Positions 3,801 through 12,855 of a DNA stretch of 30,589 nucleotides are shown piece after piece. A model generated the notes under the pieces. The model saw nothing but the letters and a program-made list of their open reading frames with translations. It did not search any database and was not told the DNA's origin. The DNA is from Fibrobacteria bacterium (lineage in GTDB: Bacteria > Fibrobacterota > Fibrobacteria > UBA11236), in contig JAYTSD010000047.1 of the NCBI GenBank assembly GCA_043745805.1, positions 1 through 30,589 on the forward strand, in the 5' to 3' direction. The position numbers and the translations under genes were made by a program. How positions within the stretch are numbered: position 1 is the first letter of the stretch; each line of letters opens with the position of its first letter.

Positions 3801-4546
3801 CCCTCGCCTTTTAAAGTCGCCAAACCATATTCACGATTCATCCGCGCGATATTGGTGGTAGAGATTTCCTTAGGGCAAGCCGATTCGCATTCCAAATGAT
3901 TGGAGCAATTACCAAAGCCCATTTCATCCATTTTGGCGACCATGCTCAGCACTCGCCTTTCTTTTTCCGGTTGACCTTGTGGCAATAAGGCTAAATGTGA
4001 AACCTTAGCACTCACAAAAAGCATAGCCGAAGCATTAGGACAAGCCGCTACGCAAGCGCCGCAACCGATACATTGCGCGGCATCCATAGCTAAATCGGAT
4101 TTGGTTTTAGAAATAGCAATGCAATTGGCGTCTTGAGCGCCACCCACATTGGCGGATATAAAGCCACCTGCGGCGATAATTTGATCAAAGCTACTTCTAT
4201 CCACTGCTAAATCTTTTAATACGGGAAAGGCTTTGGCGCGCCAAGGCTCTACCACAATGGTTTCGCCGTCTTTAAAGCTGCGCATATAGAGTTGGCAAGC
4301 GGTAGTTCCCTTTTCAGGACCATGCGGTTGGCCATTGATCACCAAGCTGCAAGTGCCACAAATGCCTTCGCGGCAATCATGTTCAAACACAATCGGTTCT
4401 TCATTTCCGCGAATCAAATCATTATTGACTTCGTCTAACATTTCCAAAAAGGACATATCCGGTAAAATATTTTTGGCGGCATATTCTTTTAGCGCGCCTT
4501 TTTCTTTGCCGTTTTTTTGACGCCATACTTTGAGTTTTAAATTCAT
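3797..4546 (-). CDS. sdhB: Succinate dehydrogenase/fumarate reductase iron-sulfur subunit
   Basis: [24 protein letters not shown] and [13 protein letters not shown]e-S motifs. Confidence 0.95.
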
Positions 4547-4591
4547 AGTTGCCTCTCGTTTGCTACTGTAACTTTTAGGTTACTTATTCCG

Positions 4592-6505
4592 TTATTTATA
4601 ACTGCGTTGAGTGAGATGTACATTGTCGAAAGTCAAAGCTTCTTTGTGCAATTTCGAAGTTTTGTCTAAGCCTTGGAATTCCCAAGCGGCTGCATGGCAA
4701 AAGTTTTCATCATCGCGCAAGGCTTCATTTTCGTCGGTTTGGCTTTCTTCGCGGAAATGGCCGCCACAGCTTTCTTTGCGGGTTAAGGCATCGAGAGCAA
4801 GGAGTTCACCAAATTCTAAGAAGTCGGCAATGCGTCCCGCTTCTTCTAAATTTTGATTGAAGTCGCCAGAACCGCCAGTCACATTTACATTCTGCCAAAA
4901 TTCTTCACGTAACTTAGGGATTTCCACTAAGGCTTTTTTGAGGCCGGTTTCATTGCGGGCCATGCCGCAATAATTCCACATAATTTTGCCTAGCTCACGA
5001 TGAAATTCCATCGCAGGCTTTTTGCCTTTAATGCTCAAGAGTTTATCAATTTGCTGGCGCGCATTATTTTCCGCATCTTTAAACGCATCGTGATCGGTAG
5101 TTACTTTAGCGAGCGGCGCACTGGATAAATAATTTCCTAAGGTATAAGGAATCACAAAATAGCCATCGGCCAAGCCCTGCATTAAAGCGCTAGCGCCTAA
5201 GCGATTGGCGCCATGATCGGAAAAGTTGGCTTCACCTAAAACATGCAAGCCAGGAATGCTACTCATTAAATTATAATCAACCCATAAGCCACCCATGGTA
5301 TAATGCACAGCGGGGTAAATGCGCATAGGCGTTTGATAAGGATTATCATCGGTAATTTTATTGTACATCTGAAAAAGATTGCCGTATTTTTCACGAATGC
5401 GATTTTCACCCAAGCGCGAAATGGAATCACGGAAGTCGAGATAAACTGCCAAACCGCTTTCACCGACGCCTAGGCCATTATCGCATTGCTCTTTAGCATT
5501 GCGAGAAGCTACATCGCGCGGCACTAAATTTCCAAAGCTCGGGTATTTTTCTTCAAGAAAATAATTGCGTTCGCTATCGGGAATTGAGGCCGGAGCGCGT
5601 TTGTCGTCTGCTTTGCGTGGCACCCATACGCGTCCATCATTGCGCAAGCTTTCGGACATCAAAGTTAGTTTGCTTTGATGATCGCCACTTACTGGAATAC
5701 AAGTAGGATGAATTTGTGTGAAACAAGGATTTGCAAAATAGGCGCCGCGTTTGTGTGCGCGCCAGGTAGCGGTGACGTTACATCCAGCGGCATTGGTGGA
5801 TAAATAAAAGACGCGACCATAGCCCCCGGTACAAAGTAACACGGCATCCGCAGCATGGCGTTCTAATTGTCCATTCTCTAAATTACGCACAATAATACCG
5901 CGTGCTTTGCCGTCGATGGTAACCAGATCCAGCATTTCGCGACGGGTATGTAATTTTACGGAGCCTGCGCCCACTTGACGCATCAAGGAAGAATAAGCGC
6001 CGAGTAAAAGTTGTTGACCCGTTTGACCGCGAGCATAAAAGGTACGTGACACTTGTGCGCCACCAAAAGAGCGATTGTCTAAAAGACCACCGTATTCACG
6101 AGCGAAGGGAACGCCTTGTGCTACGCATTGATCGATAATGCTATTGCTGATTTCGGCGAGGCGATGCACATTGGCTTCGCGAGCGCGAAAGTCGCCGCCT
6201 TTGACCGTATCATAGAAGAGACGGTGTACGCTATCGCCATCATTGGGATAATTCTTTGCCGCATTAATGCCACCTTGTGCGGCAATACTATGTGCACGGC
6301 GCGGACTATCTTGCGAAGTAAAGGTATGCACATCATAGCCAAGCTCCGCTAAGGAAGCAGAAGCTGAACTGCCTGCTAAGCCAGTACCTACTACGATAAT
6401 TTTAAATTTTCGTTTATTGGCGGGGTTAATCAATTTGGCGTGGAATTTATAATCGGTCCACATTTGCTCTATCGAGCCGCCGGGAATTTTGGAATCCAGG
6501 GCCAT
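4592..6505 (-). CDS. sdhA: Succinate dehydrogenase/fumarate reductase flavoprotein subunit
   Basis: [21 protein letters not shown] (FAD-binding His), [31 protein letters not shown]. Confidence 0.95.
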
Positions 6506-6631: not shown

Positions 6632-7345
6632 TTATAAGCCTAAAAATTGAATCCCTAAACCGCATAGGCAAATGGTGAAGCCTGCCAAGGCCTGACTATA
6701 GCGTTCAAATTTTTGCATAGGCAAAAAACTAAGTCCATGCAAAGAAATTAAAACCATGGTGACCATGGTGATCAAGGTGACGAATGCGAAAACAAAAGTG
6801 ACGGCAACAGTGGTTTGCCAATGATTTTTTACCGAAGGGTATAAAAGTAAAGGGATTAACGGTTCGCAAGGTCCAAAAATAAAAATGGTAAAAAGTATCC
6901 ACGGCGTCATTTGTGAGTTACCCTCTTTTGCATGGGCATGACTATGCATATGCTGATGATTGTGTGTATGGGTATGTAAACCGGAATCTGCATGACTATG
7001 TGCATGCGAATGCGTTTTTTGACGCAAAGCTTTTTTTAAACCCCATAAACCATAAACCAAACCAAAAGCAATCAAAGCCCATCCCGCTAAGTTACCTCGC
7101 CAACTATCCAAGCCCACAAATTTATGCAAGGTAAGGCCAGCACCTAATCCGATTAACCCTAATAAAAAAGCGCTCGATACATGGCCGATACCACAAAGCA
7201 AAGTGATGCAAATAGATTTGCGAGTACTCCAATTCCCTGCCTTAGCCATAGCGATAAAAGGCAAATAATGATCCGGCCCCAGTACAGTATGCACCAGAGC
7301 AAGGGAAGCGGCGCTTCCCGTTAATAGGGCGGACTCAAATAGCAT
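6632..7345 (-). CDS. His-rich nickel/cobalt permease-like membrane protein (UreH/NicO/RcnA-like)
   Basis: HTVLGPDH motif in TM1, CGIGHV, long His loop (HSHAHSHADSGLHTHTHNHQHMHSHAH), GPCEP, about 6 TM segments. Start reassigned to ATG 7345 to avoid overlap with the divergent gene. Confidence 0.8.
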   Translation of the reverse strand: MLFESALLTGSAASLALVHTVLGPDHYLPFIAMAKAGNWSTRKSICITLLCGIGHVSSAFLLGLIGLGAGLTLHKFVGLDSWRGNLAGWALIAFGLVYGLWGLKKALRQKTHSHAHSHADSGLHTHTHNHQHMHSHAHAKEGNSQMTPWILFTIFIFGPCEPLIPLLLYPSVKNHWQTTVAVTFVFAFVTLITMVTMVLISLHGLSFLPMQKFERYSQALAGFTICLCGLGIQFLGL

Positions 7346-7403
7346 GAACTCTATACTAGAAAATTCCCTACCGAAATTCCATTTTTCGCGTATATTTATC
7401 CCA

Positions 7404-7916
7404 ATGAATAAGGCCATGCAAATCTTTCGTAAAGCCCTACGCCTGCGAGGGTATTTGGCTTTTGCTTTTTTACTTTGGTCTATTGTTCCGCATTTTCAAC
7501 TTATTACGCATACGCATACTGGCGGAGAAAAGGGACATTTTCATGCCGATTTATCCAAAGGGGATATCGCCAATGCAAACCTTATTTTCAACACACTCGA
7601 AGGTGTAGCTTCTTCGCCCGAAGAAAAAAATCAGGACATAAATACCAAAGAGAACAATAATAAACGTGAGAATACTAAAGCATCTGCGAATCTTAAAACA
7701 ATTTTTGCGGGAGTAGGATTAAATGCCGAAGGCAAGTCGAAACCGCATAGCCATTATAGCGAAGAGGCGAATTTAGCAAGCTTAGCTTCTCAGTTTGATA
7801 ATGCATCTCCTGAATTAGACATTATTGCTTATCTAGAAGAGTATTATCAAACACCTTCTGTATTTGGATATTCGCATTTTCAGGCGCGCGCGCCTCCGCT
7901 TCTTTCTCTCTCTTAA
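7404..7916 (+). CDS. Exported His-rich leader protein ending in RAPP (putative translation-arrest regulator, DUF2946/CruR-like architecture)
   Basis: Basic/hydrophobic N-terminus (RKALRLRGYLAFAFLLWSIVP), HTHTGGEKGHFH, low-complexity linker, HSHY, C-terminal FQARAPPLLSLS*; lies directly upstream of a TonB receptor. Confidence 0.75.
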   Translation: MNKAMQIFRKALRLRGYLAFAFLLWSIVPHFQLITHTHTGGEKGHFHADLSKGDIANANLIFNTLEGVASSPEEKNQDINTKENNNKRENTKASANLKTIFAGVGLNAEGKSKPHSHYSEEANLASLASQFDNASPELDIIAYLEEYYQTPSVFGYSHFQARAPPLLSLS

Positions 7917-8019
7917 ATTCCGTCCTTAAATATCACTAAGCCTAAGGTTAGCCTTGGGTAACATCGACGTTTCAATCCATTACCATGGTTTGATGAAAAA
8001 TTTATTAGAAAGAAAGTTT

Positions 8020-10104
8020 ATGCAAACATTTTGGAAATACACGCTTTTATTAAGCGGCATAATGCCTTCAGTATGGGGTCAGGCAATCGACTCAACTGAG
8101 ACGGCGAATACAGCGAAGTCGTCATTATATGTTCCCGACACTTTAGAGTTACCTCAAGCCAATGCGAAAGCAAGAAAGGCCATTACTTCTTCGAATAGCC
8201 AAATAATTCGCGATCGCGATTTGTCTTTGCGCGTAATGACCGATCCAAGCGATGTGATAAAAGTAACTCCGGGTTTATTTACCGGACAACATGCAGGCGG
8301 TGGCAAAGCGAATCAATATTTTATTCGCGGCTTTGACGCGGATCATGGAACGGACTTGTCCTTGTGGTTTGATGGCATGCCGATTAACAATATAAGCCAT
8401 GGCCATGGACAAGGTTATGCGGATTTGCATTTCATCATTCCCGAATTGGTGGAACAAGTGCAAGTGAATAAAGGTCCTTATGCCATTGAGTATGGAGACT
8501 TAGCCACTGCAGGATCCGTAAGCATGAAAACCCGCAAGCGCTTTACGGAAAATGAATTGTATGTTACGGGAGGTATGGATAATACTTCTCGAGTACTCAG
8601 CATACTTACTCTGAACACACCTGCAAAGCCGATTTTAGCGGCGGAAGTATTTCGCTCTGATGGCCCGTTCAAAAATCCCGAAAATTTGGAGCGCTATAAT
8701 TTATTTTTAAAAACACCTATCACTGAAAACGCTAATTCTTCCTTGGATTTGACTTTGATGGCTTATGGCAGTGGTTGGAATGGCTCGGGGCAAGTGGCAC
8801 AGCGCGCTATTGATTCCGGTTGGATAAATCGTTTTGGATCGCTGGATCCTTCCGAAGGGGGTAGCTCGCAACGTCAAAGTGTTTCTTTGAATTATTTTTC
8901 CGCGCCCAGCGTAAATGAAGAATTTCAAGCGACGGCTTATTTAATTAATTATCGACTTTCACTTTATTCGGATTTTACTTTCTTTGCTGATGATTCTATC
9001 AATGGCGATGAGATTAATCAGCGGGATGATAGAACCGTGACGGGTTTCCAAGCGACCTATGAGCATAAACATAATTTAATGGGCTTGCCTGCGGAGGCCT
9101 TATTTGGCTTAGCTTCGCGCAATGATTTAATTCATACCAATTTGGATCATGCTAAAGAACGGAAACTATTAAATAAAAAAGTGGATGCGGAAACACGCGA
9201 AGGAAGTTACAGCACTTTTGTAAAGGAATCGATTACGCCTTTACCTTGGTTGTATTTAGAATTAGGTTTGCGTGGCGATCATTTTAGTTTTAATGTAACA
9301 GATAAGTTACTTGAAACTGGCGATAGCTCCATTACGGGTGTAAAAGATGCTTCCATTTTCAGTCCTAAAGTGAACGTCGTGGTAACGCCTATTCCCGGAA
9401 CCGATATTTATTTTAATTACGGTGAAGGCTTTCATTCTAATGATGCACGCGGGGTTACGACTACTATTGATCCCGCTCGTCCTTTAACCAAGGGTGTGGG
9501 ATATGAAGTGGGTACACGTACGCAATTATTTCAGCGTTGGGATTTAGCCGCTTCGCTTTGGCGTTTAGACATGGATGGCGAATTTGTTTGGGTGGGTGAC
9601 GGCGGTGGTACGGCAGAAAGCTTTGCTTCCAAAAGAATCGGTGTTGATTTCGAAACACGATTACAAATTTTATCTTGGTTGTGGGCGGATTTCGATATGA
9701 CTAAATGTACTGCCGATTATACGCATAATGCAGGAAATGGTACTGCTGTGGCTTTAGCGCCGCGACTCACCATGGCTGGTGGATTATCTATGCGTCATGC
9801 TTCGGGTGTGTATGGAAGTTTGCGTATGCAACATTTGGACGATCGGCCCGCGGATGAAGCGGGGAGCTTTATTGCGTATGGTTTCACTGTGTTTGATTTG
9901 GCTGTCGGATATCGTTATAAGAATTGGGAACTCATTGCAACTATAAGTAATCTATTTAATACTAAATGGTATAATGCTCAATTTGAAAATGATTCGCGGA
10001 TCAAAAATCCTCAAGGTGTAATAGAAGCGGCAACCGTTACCGATATGCATGTGGTTCCGGGAACGCCTTTTCATTTGCAAGGCGGGTTGAAGCTGTATTT
10101 TTAA
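8020..10104 (+). CDS. TonB-dependent outer membrane receptor, probably for a metal
   Basis: Signal peptide from ATG 8020; plug QHAGGGKANQYFIRGFDADHGTD...HGHGQGYADLHF, VNKGPY; NLFN; terminal GLKLYF. Confidence 0.92.
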   Translation: MQTFWKYTLLLSGIMPSVWGQAIDSTETANTAKSSLYVPDTLELPQANAKARKAITSSNSQIIRDRDLSLRVMTDPSDVIKVTPGLFTGQHAGGGKANQYFIRGFDADHGTDLSLWFDGMPINNISHGHGQGYADLHFIIPELVEQVQVNKGPYAIEYGDLATAGSVSMKTRKRFTENELYVTGGMDNTSRVLSILTLNTPAKPILAAEVFRSDGPFKNPENLERYNLFLKTPITENANSSLDLTLMAYGSGWNGSGQVAQRAIDSGWINRFGSLDPSEGGSSQRQSVSLNYFSAPSVNEEFQATAYLINYRLSLYSDFTFFADDSINGDEINQRDDRTVTGFQATYEHKHNLMGLPAEALFGLASRNDLIHTNLDHAKERKLLNKKVDAETREGSYSTFVKESITPLPWLYLELGLRGDHFSFNVTDKLLETGDSSITGVKDASIFSPKVNVVVTPIPGTDIYFNYGEGFHSNDARGVTTTIDPARPLTKGVGYEVGTRTQLFQRWDLAASLWRLDMDGEFVWVGDGGGTAESFASKRIGVDFETRLQILSWLWADFDMTKCTADYTHNAGNGTAVALAPRLTMAGGLSMRHASGVYGSLRMQHLDDRPADEAGSFIAYGFTVFDLAVGYRYKNWELIATISNLFNTKWYNAQFENDSRIKNPQGVIEAATVTDMHVVPGTPFHLQGGLKLYF

Positions 10105-10153: not shown

Positions 10154-10265
10154 TTAAATCATACCTATAAGTTCGAACTACTTGTTTTCGTAACTTTCCT
10201 CTAAACCAATTACCCTTTATTCGCAACATTTTCTTATCTTATGTCGCGAAGTTCAAATGAACTTC

Positions 10266-10467
10266 TGCTTATAGGGAGCTTTCCTTACGAGGAAAGCATA
10301 ACGAGGAATTCCGTTTAAATCGGAAGCGAGCTCGTCGCTGTAAGCGGATCGAAACCCCGCACTGTGTTTACGCAGTAGCCACTGTTCTACAAAGAATGGG
10401 AAGGTGGGGAAGTAGTAGGAAACATTTATGTTTCCAATCCGCAAGCCAGAAGACTCACCTGCAAGTA
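10266..10467 (+). ncRNA. Cobalamin (B12) riboswitch
   Basis: AGGAAttccgtttAAATcggaa, GCTGTAA, GCCACTG...GGGAAGG and B12 box GCAAGCCAGAAGAC; P1 pairs 10266-10275 with 10458-10467; located upstream of metE. Confidence 0.92.
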
Positions 10468-10547
10468 TACCAATCATCTTCGAGGACAAGATGGATGGGT
10501 GGACAACTACAGCGTTTATCGCCATTGTTGCGCATTCCTTCTTCATG

Positions 10548-10572: not shown

Positions 10573-12855
10573 ATGCCTATTAAAACTCATAATCTCGGCT
10601 ATCCGCGTATTGGAAAAAACCGTGAACTCAAAAAAGCCATTGAAGCTTATTGGGGGAGCCGTTTACCTGCGGTGGAATTACAACAAATCATCGCTACTTT
10701 GCGACAGCGAAATTGGTTAAAGCAAAAGGAAGCAGGAATTGAATTAATTCCTTCCAATGATTTTACCTTATATGATCAAGTACTCGATCATATTTGCTTA
10801 TTGGGTTGTCAGCCGGAACGCTTCGTAAAAAAAAGTTTAGTGTTTGGCATGGATGATTATTTCTCCATGGCACGAGGTTCAGCGAATGCAGAGGCGATGG
10901 AAATGACTAAATGGTTTGATACCAATTATCATTATCTAGTTCCTGAATTAAAAAAAAATCAAACCTTTCAATTAGCATCTACCAAACCTGTGGATGAATT
11001 TTATGAAGCTTTAGCCTTGGGAATTAAAACTAAGCCCGTGCTACTTGGGCCGGTGTCTTTTTTGCGTTTGGCAAAATGTGTTGGGACGTCCTTTGATAAA
11101 CTGACTTTGTTACCCAAACTAATACCTATTTATGCTTTACTCTTACAAGAGTTGAAGCGGATTGGAGTTGAATGGGTGCAAATCGATGAACCTATTTTAG
11201 CTATGGATTTAAACAACGAGGAACAGGAAGCTTTTATAAGTACCTACAAAATATTAGCAAGTTCAGCCCCCTCGATTATTTTGTGTAGTTATTTTGGAGC
11301 TTATGGATCTAACTTATCATTAGCACTTTCATTACCTGTAAATGCTTTACATTTGGATTTATGTAGAGGCGAAGAAGATTTTGATTTTGCATTAGAAAAT
11401 TTATCTTCTAGGTGCTTATTATCCTTGGGTCTAGTAGATGGTCGAAATATTTGGAAAAATAACTTTGCGCATTCCTTAGCACTTATCGAAAAAGCCAAAG
11501 AAAAATTAGGGGAAGCAAGGCTTTGGATTGCTCCTTCTTGTTCACTACTTCATTCTCCTTTATCACTGGCCATGGAAGACAAGCCCTCAGGTATTCCCCA
11601 CGAATTATCCCGCTGGATGTCTTTTGCAGAAGAGAAATTAATCGAAGTTAAAACTTTAGCGCATTTGGCCAGTGTGAGTAACAGCAAAGATACTCTTGAA
11701 TACCAAAATAATCAGGACGATATCGGGCATCGTAAAGATCATGCCGCTTTGAAAATTAGGAGCGTGCAAGAGAAATGTGAAAATGTTAAAACGGAGCATT
11801 TGCGCAGAAAATCAGTTTTTAGTCAAAGAAAAGTTGTTCAACAAAATAAATTACAATTACCGAATTTTCCGACAACTACAATCGGATCTTTTCCGCAAAC
11901 TGAAGCGGTGCGTCAAGCGCGAGCAAATGCAAAGAATGGATCATGGTCTATGCTGCAGTACCGTAATTTTCTAAAAGCGGAAACTATACGGGTGGTTAAG
12001 TTGCAGGAGGATTTAGGTTTAGATGTGCTGGTACATGGCGAATTTGAACGTAATGATATGGTGGAATATTTTGGAGAGAAATTACATGGCTTTACTTTCA
12101 GCGCGAATGGCTGGGTGCAGAGTTATGGAACACGCTGCGTGAAACCACCTATTATTTTTGGTGATGTTTGTCGCCGTGAGGCCATGACAGTGGAATGGTC
12201 ATCTTTTGCGCAAGCAGCTACTACAAAACCCATGAAAGGTATGTTAACTGGACCGGTTACTATTTTGAAATGGAGTTTCGTGCGCGACGATCAGCCTTTG
12301 GATGTTACAGCTAGGCAAATAGCTTGGGCTATCCGTGAAGAAGTATTGGACTTAGAAACGGCAGGGTTACCCATAATTCAAATTGATGAGCCTGCTTTGC
12401 GTGAAGGAATGCCTTTACGACCAGACGCTGCAAAGATTTATCTTAAATGGGCTGTGGAAGCATTTCAATTATCTGCTTCAGGTGTTCGTGACGAAACCCA
12501 AATCCATACACATATGTGTTACTGTGACTTTCATGAAATCCTAGATTCTGTGGCTGCTATGGATGCAGATGTTATTTCACTGGAAGCTGCACGTTCACGT
12601 ATGGAGTTGCTAGAAGCATTTGTGCATTTCGACTATCCCAATGGGGTTGGTCCAGGTATTTGGGATATTCATTCTCCGCGTATTCCAACAGTTATTGAAA
12701 TGGAAAAGCTATTACTAAAGGCAAGTGAAAGAGTTGAGAAAGGTAACTTATGGGTTAACCCAGACTGTGGCCTTAAAACTCGAGGCTGGCCGGAAGTACT
12801 TCAGGCTCTTGAACATATGGTGACGGCTGCGAAACTTCTGCGAAAGGTTTTTTAA
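10573..12855 (+). CDS. metE: Cobalamin-independent methionine synthase
   Basis: True start MPIKTHNLGYPRIG at 10573; MTKWFDTNYHY, PTTTIGSFPQT, HGEFERNDMVEYF; Zn ligands in HTHMCY and NPDCGLKTR. Confidence 0.97.
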   Translation: MPIKTHNLGYPRIGKNRELKKAIEAYWGSRLPAVELQQIIATLRQRNWLKQKEAGIELIPSNDFTLYDQVLDHICLLGCQPERFVKKSLVFGMDDYFSMARGSANAEAMEMTKWFDTNYHYLVPELKKNQTFQLASTKPVDEFYEALALGIKTKPVLLGPVSFLRLAKCVGTSFDKLTLLPKLIPIYALLLQELKRIGVEWVQIDEPILAMDLNNEEQEAFISTYKILASSAPSIILCSYFGAYGSNLSLALSLPVNALHLDLCRGEEDFDFALENLSSRCLLSLGLVDGRNIWKNNFAHSLALIEKAKEKLGEARLWIAPSCSLLHSPLSLAMEDKPSGIPHELSRWMSFAEEKLIEVKTLAHLASVSNSKDTLEYQNNQDDIGHRKDHAALKIRSVQEKCENVKTEHLRRKSVFSQRKVVQQNKLQLPNFPTTTIGSFPQTEAVRQARANAKNGSWSMLQYRNFLKAETIRVVKLQEDLGLDVLVHGEFERNDMVEYFGEKLHGFTFSANGWVQSYGTRCVKPPIIFGDVCRREAMTVEWSSFAQAATTKPMKGMLTGPVTILKWSFVRDDQPLDVTARQIAWAIREEVLDLETAGLPIIQIDEPALREGMPLRPDAAKIYLKWAVEAFQLSASGVRDETQIHTHMCYCDFHEILDSVAAMDADVISLEAARSRMELLEAFVHFDYPNGVGPGIWDIHSPRIPTVIEMEKLLLKASERVEKGNLWVNPDCGLKTRGWPEVLQALEHMVTAAKLLRKVF

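Follow-up and report, generated by a model that had tools for sequence, protein, structure and literature searches.

We studied a 30,589-nucleotide (nt) stretch of contig JAYTSD010000047.1 (assembly GCA_043745805.1) from a Fibrobacteria bacterium, hereafter the window, in which a short, histidine-bearing open reading frame (ORF) at 7404-7916 lies directly upstream of a gene for a TonB-dependent receptor (TBDR). Our analysis indicates that this leader is probably a cis-acting, metal-sensing arrest-peptide switch for the receptor and not an ordinary structural gene. Control of the TBDR in cis by an arrest peptide is likely; we also favor, with less assurance, a metal as the ligand, held through the His motifs. 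The leader and the receptor gene comprise the following features:

7404..7916, plus strand: leader ORF, 170 amino acids (aa) plus stop, with no Pfam or NCBIfam match
7416, plus strand: ATG, a possible alternative leader start, with AAGG upstream
7455..7505, plus strand: hydrophobic N-terminal segment, residues 18-34, preceded by 5 Lys/Arg; export signal or signal-anchor
7488..7544, plus strand: N-terminal His cluster (P29, H30, H36-T-H38-TGGEKG-H45-F-H47), with conserved columns in the family alignments
7545..7745, plus strand: linker, residues 48-114, polar, of low complexity, variable and probably disordered (predicted local distance difference test score, pLDDT, <50 at residues 90-106)
7746..7754, plus strand: third HxH, H115-S-H117 (followed by Tyr), 47 residues ahead of R162
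7887..7898, plus strand: RAPP motif, R162 A163 P164 P165, codons CGC GCG CCT CCG
7899..7919, plus strand: pyrimidine tract CUUCUUUCUCUCUCUUAAAUU, spanning the five codons after RAPP and the stop codon; candidate anti-Shine-Dalgarno (SD) element within a C-rich, G-poor tract
7917..8019, plus strand: leader-TBDR intergenic region, 103 nt (81-188 nt in nine relatives)
7999..8016, plus strand: purine-rich, SD-like region AAUUUAUUAGAAAGAAAG, predicted by folding to be masked
8020..10104, plus strand: TBDR, 694 aa (Pfam Plug, E 6.8e-17; barrel, E 2.5e-25)

The longest plus-strand frame runs from 7344 to 7916 (190 aa), and its in-frame ATG at 7404 yields the 170-aa leader; homologs align from this start, both distant ones and the closest two (45-48% identity). 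The latter are known as proteins only, and searches of genome and metagenome contigs with a leader alignment turned up no related locus. A sequence-only reading of the window had described a 170-aa ORF with His clusters, no Cys and RAPP (7887-7898) five codons before the stop, directly upstream of a TBDR, and all of this was borne out: the leader holds 8 His and 0 Cys, ends in QARAPPLLSLS with five codons (LLSLS) between RAPP and the TAA at 7914-7916, and is followed, 103 nt after its stop, by a gene with both the Plug and the barrel domain. That reading had also assigned an export signal. The basic N terminus and hydrophobic stretch (LAFAFLLWSIVPHFQLI, 17-residue Kyte-Doolittle mean 1.79) are present, a 17-mer reaching 1.6 occurs in 34 of 56 members of the leader family described below, and AlphaFold2 models residues 2-27 as a confident helix (block pLDDT 88-95). 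Because no obvious signal-peptidase site was seen, a signal-anchor appears as likely as a cleaved signal.

We searched 1.84 billion cluster representatives with a profile of 12 leader sequences (A2), accepting hits at E of 1e-3 or less. This returned 65 proteins, of which one, a repetitive protein of 4157 aa, was set aside to leave 64 short clusters. An R(A/G)PP motif stood within the last 20 residues in 56 of these 64 (20 RAPP, 36 RGPP), upholding the expectation that RAPP would be conserved in homologs, and was followed by 1-7 residues in 55 of the 56 motif-bearing members and by 16 in one. The distance from the last HxH to the Arg was 47 residues in 46 members, 46 in 9 and 45 in 1, so that it stayed at 45-47 in 56/56, whereas the N-terminal His cluster and the last HxH were separated by 28-80 residues (median 62, n=54); the predicted pattern of fixed His clusters around a variable linker was thus found. 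The eight clusters lacking R(A/G)PP were P0015 (SGPP), P0041 (RDPP), P0028, which stops just short of the motif, and P0035, P0043, P0053, P0055 and P0059, which are fragments or have divergent ends. Members are 150-180 aa long, nearly all of the motif-bearing ones exceeding 150 aa; Cys is absent from 26 of the 56, and there is no conserved Cys column.

A larger alignment (A3) was made from 55 of the 66 protein ids, excluding the eight motif-less sequences, the long protein and the N-terminally truncated P0050 and P0061; its members are 17-49% identical to the window leader. Nine columns were invariant (P29, H38, H45, H47, H115, H117, R162, P164 and P165), and H36 and N123 were conserved in 90% or more of the sequences. 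For R and PP, invariance here results from the selection of sequences; for the His residues it does not. In the 12-sequence alignment, P29, H36, H38, H45 and H47 were invariant. One member, the leader of genome G018 (L064, about 4120-4660, minus strand), has a linker with an extreme run of His-Pro/His-Ser, HSHSHPHSHSHPHPHPHEH, and is otherwise intact, with RGPPRG at its end and an HSH 47 residues ahead of RGPP.

We then considered whether the leader might be a stable, membrane-anchored periplasmic metal-binding accessory protein or chaperone of the receptor, whose C-terminal R(A/G)PP has no regulatory role. The N-terminal His cluster, together with the His-rich linker of some members such as that of G018, would suit a metallochaperone, and 150-180 aa is longer than typical leaders. 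Against this, R and PP are nearly invariant, the motif lies 1-7 residues from the stop in all motif-bearing members save one, and a fixed HxH-to-Arg distance beside a freely varying linker is difficult to reconcile with a folded protein of the periplasm. The motif is also rare: the 3.95-Mb genome (40% GC) has 8714 mechanically called ORFs of 60 aa or more, in which there were 7 RAPP and 5 RGPP, and only 2 of the 8714 had R(A/G)PP inside the last 16 residues. These two, both preceding metal-uptake genes, are the window leader and a CxxC-type leader on contig C39 ahead of a ZnuA/ABC-3 operon. RAPP and RGPP are also reportedly avoided in proteomes (PMC12992588, in excerpt). We regard the accessory-protein explanation as improbable. 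The RAPP codons themselves form a GC-only palindrome, AGGCGCGCGCGCCT, at 7882-7895 within this 40% GC genome, which the terminator scan reported as a hairpin of 5 bp with a run of pyrimidines behind it and which is present in the minimum-free-energy fold.

Linkage between leader and receptor was assessed in two genome sets, with genomes cited by our own handles and G000 denoting that of the window. A six-frame search of 41 related genomes located the leader in 10 including G000 (9/24 of the same family, 0/16 outside it); the nine relatives had a C-terminal R(A/G)PP in all but G023 (SGPP), and each had an ORF of about 700 aa following on the same strand. With A3 as the query, 14 of 296 genomes of the phylum gave a leader match, comprising G000, 13 of 31 others in its own family (class Fibrobacteria) and 0 of 264 elsewhere; the restriction to one Fibrobacteria family is drawn from these 296 genomes, the protein library carrying no taxonomy. 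The TBDR is much better conserved than the leader (49-70% versus about 25-31% identity), and its orthologs (at least 50% identity) occurred in 12 of the 32 family genomes, with the leader directly upstream in 12/12, in keeping with the adjacency that the sequence-only reading had expected. A Comamonadaceae genome with a 33%-identical TBDR had no such leader.

Three loci depart from this arrangement. G023 (L029/L075) has the SGPP leader, which lacks the third HxH, and a TBDR with an internal stop that is split over two frames, while G277 (L065) retains only the N-terminal part of the leader, with ARGPKPG replacing the motif, and has no orthologous TBDR. Read from their sequences, these two show signs of joint decay of leader and TBDR, an assembly error being possible. 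In G014 (L012, 7651-11081), an intact leader (RAPP, spacing 46) is followed after about 840 nt by a TBDR that is not orthologous to that of the window; the 840-nt stretch holds a small ORF with a lipoprotein-like signal (LALAGC).

The closest studied counterpart is CruR (Bordetella pertussis Bp2923), a 145-aa exported DUF2946 protein in which CxxC and RAPP lie 45 residues apart, a spacing on which regulation depends; stalling at RAPP prevents Rho termination before the TBDR gene bfrG, copper relieves the stall, and the locus has a Rho-utilization (rut) site in a region with more C than G (PMC9426467, in excerpt). The sequence-only reading's account of CruR agrees with this source. Translation arrest at RAPP has been demonstrated for ApdA, ApdP and CruR, for CruR in vitro and in a RAPP-dependent manner, with a toeprint suggesting Pro codons in the P and A sites, and upstream ORFs (uORFs) with RAPP/RGPP and signal sequences are over-represented ahead of TBDR genes (PMC12992588, in excerpt). 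The window leader resembles CruR in being the first gene ahead of a TBDR with a long spacer, in its putative N-terminal export signal and poorly structured body, in a ligand motif of two residues kept at constant spacing from RAPP (with 45 residues between them in CruR and 44 in the window leader), in having RAPP 2-7 residues before the stop, and in the C-rich, G-poor RNA tract near the arrest site. Unlike CruR, the family has HxH for CxxC, the window leader lacking Cys altogether, an additional invariant His cluster after the membrane helix with its 28-80-residue linker, and a length of 150-180 rather than 145 aa; CruR senses copper, and the His-type family was seen only in one Fibrobacteria family among the 296 genomes of the phylum.

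We also searched with the DUF2946 profile hidden Markov model (PF11162, gathering score 23.7 bits), the sequence-only reading having named this comparison. At E up to 1, neither the window leader nor any of the 55 family members matched, and a six-frame search of G000 gave 0 matches, including none at the leader locus. By this measure the His-type leaders are a separate family and do not belong to DUF2946. Their architecture nevertheless suggests that they work like CruR, and they may be either a very divergent DUF2946 branch or convergent. CxxC-type leaders of the same phylum show a comparable ruler, with 47-49 residues from the first Cys to the Arg in 23 of the 30 PF11162-matching loci examined, and a His pair right after the membrane segment is common to the two types.

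Both types can occur in one genome. The second RAPP leader of G000, at C39:13567-13896 (minus strand; L066:4568-4897, minus strand), has 109 aa with an N-terminal membrane segment, HQH followed further on by CQLC, a first-Cys-to-Arg distance of 47 and the C terminus LARAPPFKNI; it scores 18.8 bits against DUF2946, with the cut-off at 23.7, and heads an operon for a 356-aa exported protein without a Pfam match, a ZnuA-family binding protein and an ABC-3 permease. In G005 (L010), a CxxC leader (CQLC, ending in SRGPPSA, spacing 47) with genes for a porin-like protein, ZnuA and ABC-3 is divergent from the His-type leader and TBDR, so that two arrest-peptide cassettes with different ligand motifs stand back to back (6982-7449, minus strand, and about 7566-7862, plus strand).

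The window locus fits the operational class of TonB-related RAPP/RGPP uORFs, which are small signal-bearing proteins of Gram-negative bacteria with a C-terminal RAPP/RGPP before TBDR genes; that class is defined by motif and downstream annotation, and the excerpted source describes no His-only family, spacing rule or Fibrobacteria lineage (PMC12992588). With ApdA, ApdP and SecM, the leader shares an arrest tetrapeptide (RAPP/RAGP) near the C terminus and a stalled ribosome that, in those systems, opens the mask over the ribosome-binding site (RBS) of the next gene. Those leaders precede sec genes and sense translocation, whereas the window leader precedes a TBDR and has conserved candidate metal-ligand residues. 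Could the leader nonetheless monitor export or membrane insertion (Sec/YidC/SRP), in the manner of SecM, MifM or ApdA/ApdP, with no metal sensed? The arrest motif is that of ApdA/ApdP, the N terminus bears a putative export signal, and pulling force during translocation is the established mode of release in that class (PMC12992588, in excerpt). However, the downstream gene encodes a TBDR and not a Sec/YidC component, six His are invariant or nearly so with one pair at a fixed distance from the arrest point, and the neighbors are metal transporters, all of which make pure export monitoring very improbable.

The sequence-only reading had proposed a His-ligand sensor of Ni, Co or Zn from which metal binding would release the stall, and our results support that proposal in part. 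The metal-sensing switch that we favor would operate in four steps. First, the ribosome would stall at R162-A-P-P165, Pro164 occupying the P site and Pro165 the A site, by analogy with the CruR toeprint. Second, the stalled ribosome would keep the TBDR expressed by one or both of two routes: by occupying 7899-7911, which would otherwise pair with the SD region at 8007-8016 (unmasking of the SecM/CutF type), or by covering the C-rich, G-poor tract and so keeping Rho off the transcript (CruR type). A ribosome with Pro164 in the P site (7893-7895) would cover about 12-15 nt downstream and therefore reach into the pyrimidine tract. Third, the nascent chain would sense a divalent metal through the invariant His. 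The ribosome tunnel holds about 30-40 residues, so that a residue about 49 from the P site would lie just outside the ribosome, or near the periplasmic exit of SecYEG if the chain were threaded; HxH 115-117, 47 residues from the Arg, would thus be just out of the tunnel or at the translocon exit during the stall and would then come together with the His cluster just behind the membrane helix. AlphaFold2, run with A3, predicted short strands at 31-36 and 115-120 (block pLDDT ~80) spanning the two HxH-bearing segments, and we infer from the model that these strands may pair to give a joint His site. Fourth, metal-dependent folding or binding would relieve the stall, the leader would be completed, and the mask would re-form or Rho would terminate, so that a sufficient metal supply would turn the uptake receptor off. 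In engineered constructs, a SecM arrest can be released by metal-dependent folding of the ADR1a zinc finger close to the end of the tunnel.

A more detailed version of this mechanism is speculative and, taken as a whole, doubtful. In it, the leader is a His-based nascent-chain sensor of periplasmic Ni/Co (or Zn), in which HxH 115-117 at the outer face of the translocon would zip via the metal onto the membrane-anchored HxH-x6-HxH, the resulting pull releasing the arrest; the CCU-CCN arrest codons, an anti-SD mimic kept against codon bias, would form part of the RBS mask, placing sensor, force transducer and RNA switch in about 30 nt.

We next examined the RNA around the arrest site. Folding of 7850-8060 paired 7902-7907 with 8011-8016, 7909-7911 with 8007-8009 and 7914-7919 with 7999-8004, at pairing probabilities of 0.90-0.97 at the printed positions of 7902-7917 and 0.90-0.96 at the nine paired positions of 7902-7911:8007-8016; the pyrimidine tract is thereby predicted to mask the purine-rich AGAAAGAAAG just before the ATG at 8020. 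SD-like purine runs precede the TBDR start in 10/10 loci. For each leader transcript we scanned for the best duplex with its own TBDR RBS, taking blocks of 17 start positions as background. In the window and in G004, no block complemented the RBS better than the arrest block (0.002 of other positions were as good), which ranked at 0.05-0.12 in G005, G024, G008 and G021; the Fisher combined p over the 10 non-independent loci was 2e-4, a value overstated by kinship.

The arrest codons showed a bias of their own. The first Pro codon (7893-7895 in the window) was CCT in 7 of 10 His-type loci, versus 1.74 expected if Pro codons were used as in the neighboring TBDR genes (p 8.5e-5 by simulation, from kin loci); in G016 the motif reads CCT CCT, though there is no other CCT among 47 Pro codons, and CCT was the first Pro codon in 13 of 17 CxxC-type leaders. 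The bias suggests either an anti-SD element, which is possible because CCUCC complements GGAGG, or a tRNA-specific need of the arrest.

An output that is purely transcriptional, as in CruR, has to be weighed against SD unmasking: the stall would shield a rut site or the polymerase, release would lead to Rho termination within the 103-nt spacer, and the SD helix would be incidental. CruR works in this way, with its rut site in a C>G region (PMC9426467, in excerpt). In the window, the 60-nt segment of leader plus spacer with the largest C-minus-G begins 3 nt before the Arg codon (C 0.37 and G 0.13, versus 0.20 and 0.19 overall), and in 8 of 10 loci this maximum begins 3-102 nt upstream of the Arg codon. 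Rho is encoded (661 bits versus a cut-off of 509), the spacers are long (81-188 nt), and the terminator scan found no intrinsic terminator in the leader-TBDR spacer of the window. Conversely, in the window and G004 the tract next to the arrest site complements the RBS best of all, the C-richness follows in part from the Pro and Ala codons, and a rut site in the leader tract is a candidate that sequence alone cannot verify. A Rho-only output is therefore a real contender, if short of an even chance; as the main output in the window, SD unmasking and Rho stand roughly even, and both may act. Other RNA elements were sought as well. Rfam gave no known RNA family within the window's leader-TBDR spacer and no riboswitch in the loci of 11 relatives or in the second-leader locus L066 of the same genome; the promoter scan of the window gave fewer sigma-70-like sites than shuffled sequence (7 versus 10), with none usefully upstream of the leader, and the single inverted repeat in 7280-7430 lies inside the divergent gene.

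The sign of the response could in principle be reversed, with metal prolonging the stall and the receptor induced by metal. This is the polarity of Rhodobacter CutF, in which Cu binding delays export, stalls translation and opens an SD-masking stem-loop (PMC9973294; bioRxiv 10.1101/2025.02.05.636593; both in excerpt). However, the gene downstream in the window is for an uptake receptor and not for detoxification, and to induce it under metal excess would be counter-productive; metal relieves the stall of CruR, the one leader before a TBDR to have been studied (PMC9426467), and the family has the R(A/G)PP of CruR where CutF has a proline repeat. We consider the CutF polarity unlikely. Relief of the stall by metal, as in CruR, is the economical choice, because the target is an uptake receptor and the stall means ON in both output models.

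The clues to the metal that would be sensed are indirect and do not all point the same way. The neighboring genes that bear on this, and those on the far side of the receptor, are as follows:

6632..7345, minus strand: divergent membrane protein with a His-rich loop, of the DsbD_2/NicO kind (DsbD_2 E 1e-5, 26 bits)
10256-10476, plus strand: cobalamin riboswitch RF00174 (86.9 bits), immediately downstream of the TBDR and ahead of metE
about 10573-12855: metE, cobalamin-independent methionine synthase, following the cobalamin riboswitch

The divergent 6632-7345 protein has a weak RcnA-like match (18.4 bits versus a cut-off of 195) and DsbD_2/NicO proteins as its protein-atlas neighbors, and homologs at 45-46% identity are also divergent from the leader in G004 and G008, so that a NicO/DsbD_2-like His-rich membrane protein holds this position in three loci. 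Judged from sequence, its product is possibly a Ni/Co-type transporter; this is context only and does not imply co-regulation with the leader. In G278 the divergent neighbor is a CbiM-type energy-coupling factor (ECF) transporter (CbiM-PDGLE, ATPase), for which the top NCBIfam names are cobalt transporter CbiM, every score falling below the cut-off. In G005 it is the operon of CxxC leader, porin-like protein, ZnuA and ABC-3, the same operon as elsewhere in G000. Ni/Co is a tentative candidate for the sensed metal and Zn a fainter one; we rate Ni/Co somewhat above Zn, with neither established. Fur-family genes near the G024 and G018 loci were tried as a clue to the metal and dropped, as they look PerR-like.

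On the other side, metE adjoins the TBDR in the window and in G016, where it is convergent, accompanied by a LysR gene and without a riboswitch; the other loci have hldE or unrelated neighbors. The TBDR was also considered as a cobalamin or siderophore receptor under the nearby B12 riboswitch, an idea we rejected: the riboswitch at 10256-10476 follows the TBDR and belongs to metE. Among solved structures, the TBDR matches only the plug regions of CntO, FoxA and BtuB (E about 1e-7 to 1e-8), and because the matches cover only plug regions we make no substrate call. The invariant His of the plug in this subfamily include H91, H109, H127, H129 and H137 (window 8290-8430, residues 91-137) and lie in the unusual motifs QHAGGGKANQYF, DxDHGTD, SHGHGQG and DLHF, and these histidines may form a direct metal site.

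Several observations weigh against the proposed switch or reduce its support. The neighbor genes point to different metals in different genomes. The library search matched the leader to no Pfam or NCBIfam family, and its AlphaFold2 model is weak overall (pLDDT 66.6; predicted template-modeling score, pTM, 0.39). An hhalign comparison of A3 with A4, a local alignment of 15 CxxC-type leaders of the same phylum that is not the Pfam seed, was not significant (4.9% probability, over 15 columns around the first HxH), and homology to CruR is for that reason not demonstrated; a word-based protein search with one local CxxC leader, meant to broaden A4 beyond this phylum, gave no hits. The masking helix is predicted only: the 211-nt fold is unexceptional (z-score -1.38, with 20 of 200 shuffles as good), the arrest block was unremarkable (0.35-0.63) in 4 of 10 loci (G016, G001, G280 and G278), and some pairing is expected in any case, as CCUCC Pro-Pro codons are intrinsically complementary to GGAGG. 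The TBDR start was itself inferred: ATG 8020 is the likely one, its MQTFWKY resembling the MKPFWKK of the G016 ortholog, with an alternative in-frame ATG at 7993. Finally, the compared genomes are kin, so that the counts overstate independence, and G021, an unpublished genome, supplies one row in each linkage and distribution count.

The principle of such leaders is already published, in CruR (PMC9426467), CutF (PMC9973294) and the RAPP/RGPP uORFs before TBDRs (PMC12992588). The survey of CutF-like proteins, which kept only those <150 aa, distinguished 29 clusters in a sequence-similarity network, of which the His-only clusters 14 and 17 lie upstream of HupE/UreJ and were suggested to sense Ni/Co (PMC9973294, in excerpt). 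The CutF-like proteins share with the switch proposed here a metal-sensing nascent chain that is exported and has a proline motif near its C terminus, SD-masking RNA opened by a stalled ribosome, and His-only variants proposed as Ni/Co sensors. They differ in that the published His-only clusters precede HupE/UreJ and not TBDRs, some overlap of the present family with clusters 14 and 17 being possible; in that nearly all motif-bearing His-type members exceed the length limit of the survey; and in that metal promotes the stall of CutF and induces a detoxification enzyme. In our literature search we found no published account of a His-only RAPP/RGPP family before TBDRs, and none of the 47-residue ruler or the CCU bias.

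Together, these results provide a family label for 64 protein clusters currently without a Pfam or NCBIfam match and point to the TBDR subfamily with a His-rich plug (SHGHGQG followed by DLHF) as a candidate metal-uptake receptor. The CCU bias at the first Pro codon, in His-type and Cys-type leaders alike, is a new and testable observation. The window locus would represent a natural ligand swap of the CruR/CutF principle, with the same architecture and the same 44-45-residue ruler, and with His pairs in place of Cys pairs before an uptake receptor. If this is true, a two-residue motif would set the metal specificity of such switches and the class would extend beyond copper; the leader would also offer a clean system for learning how ligand binding about 47 residues from the peptidyl-transferase center relieves arrest at RAPP.

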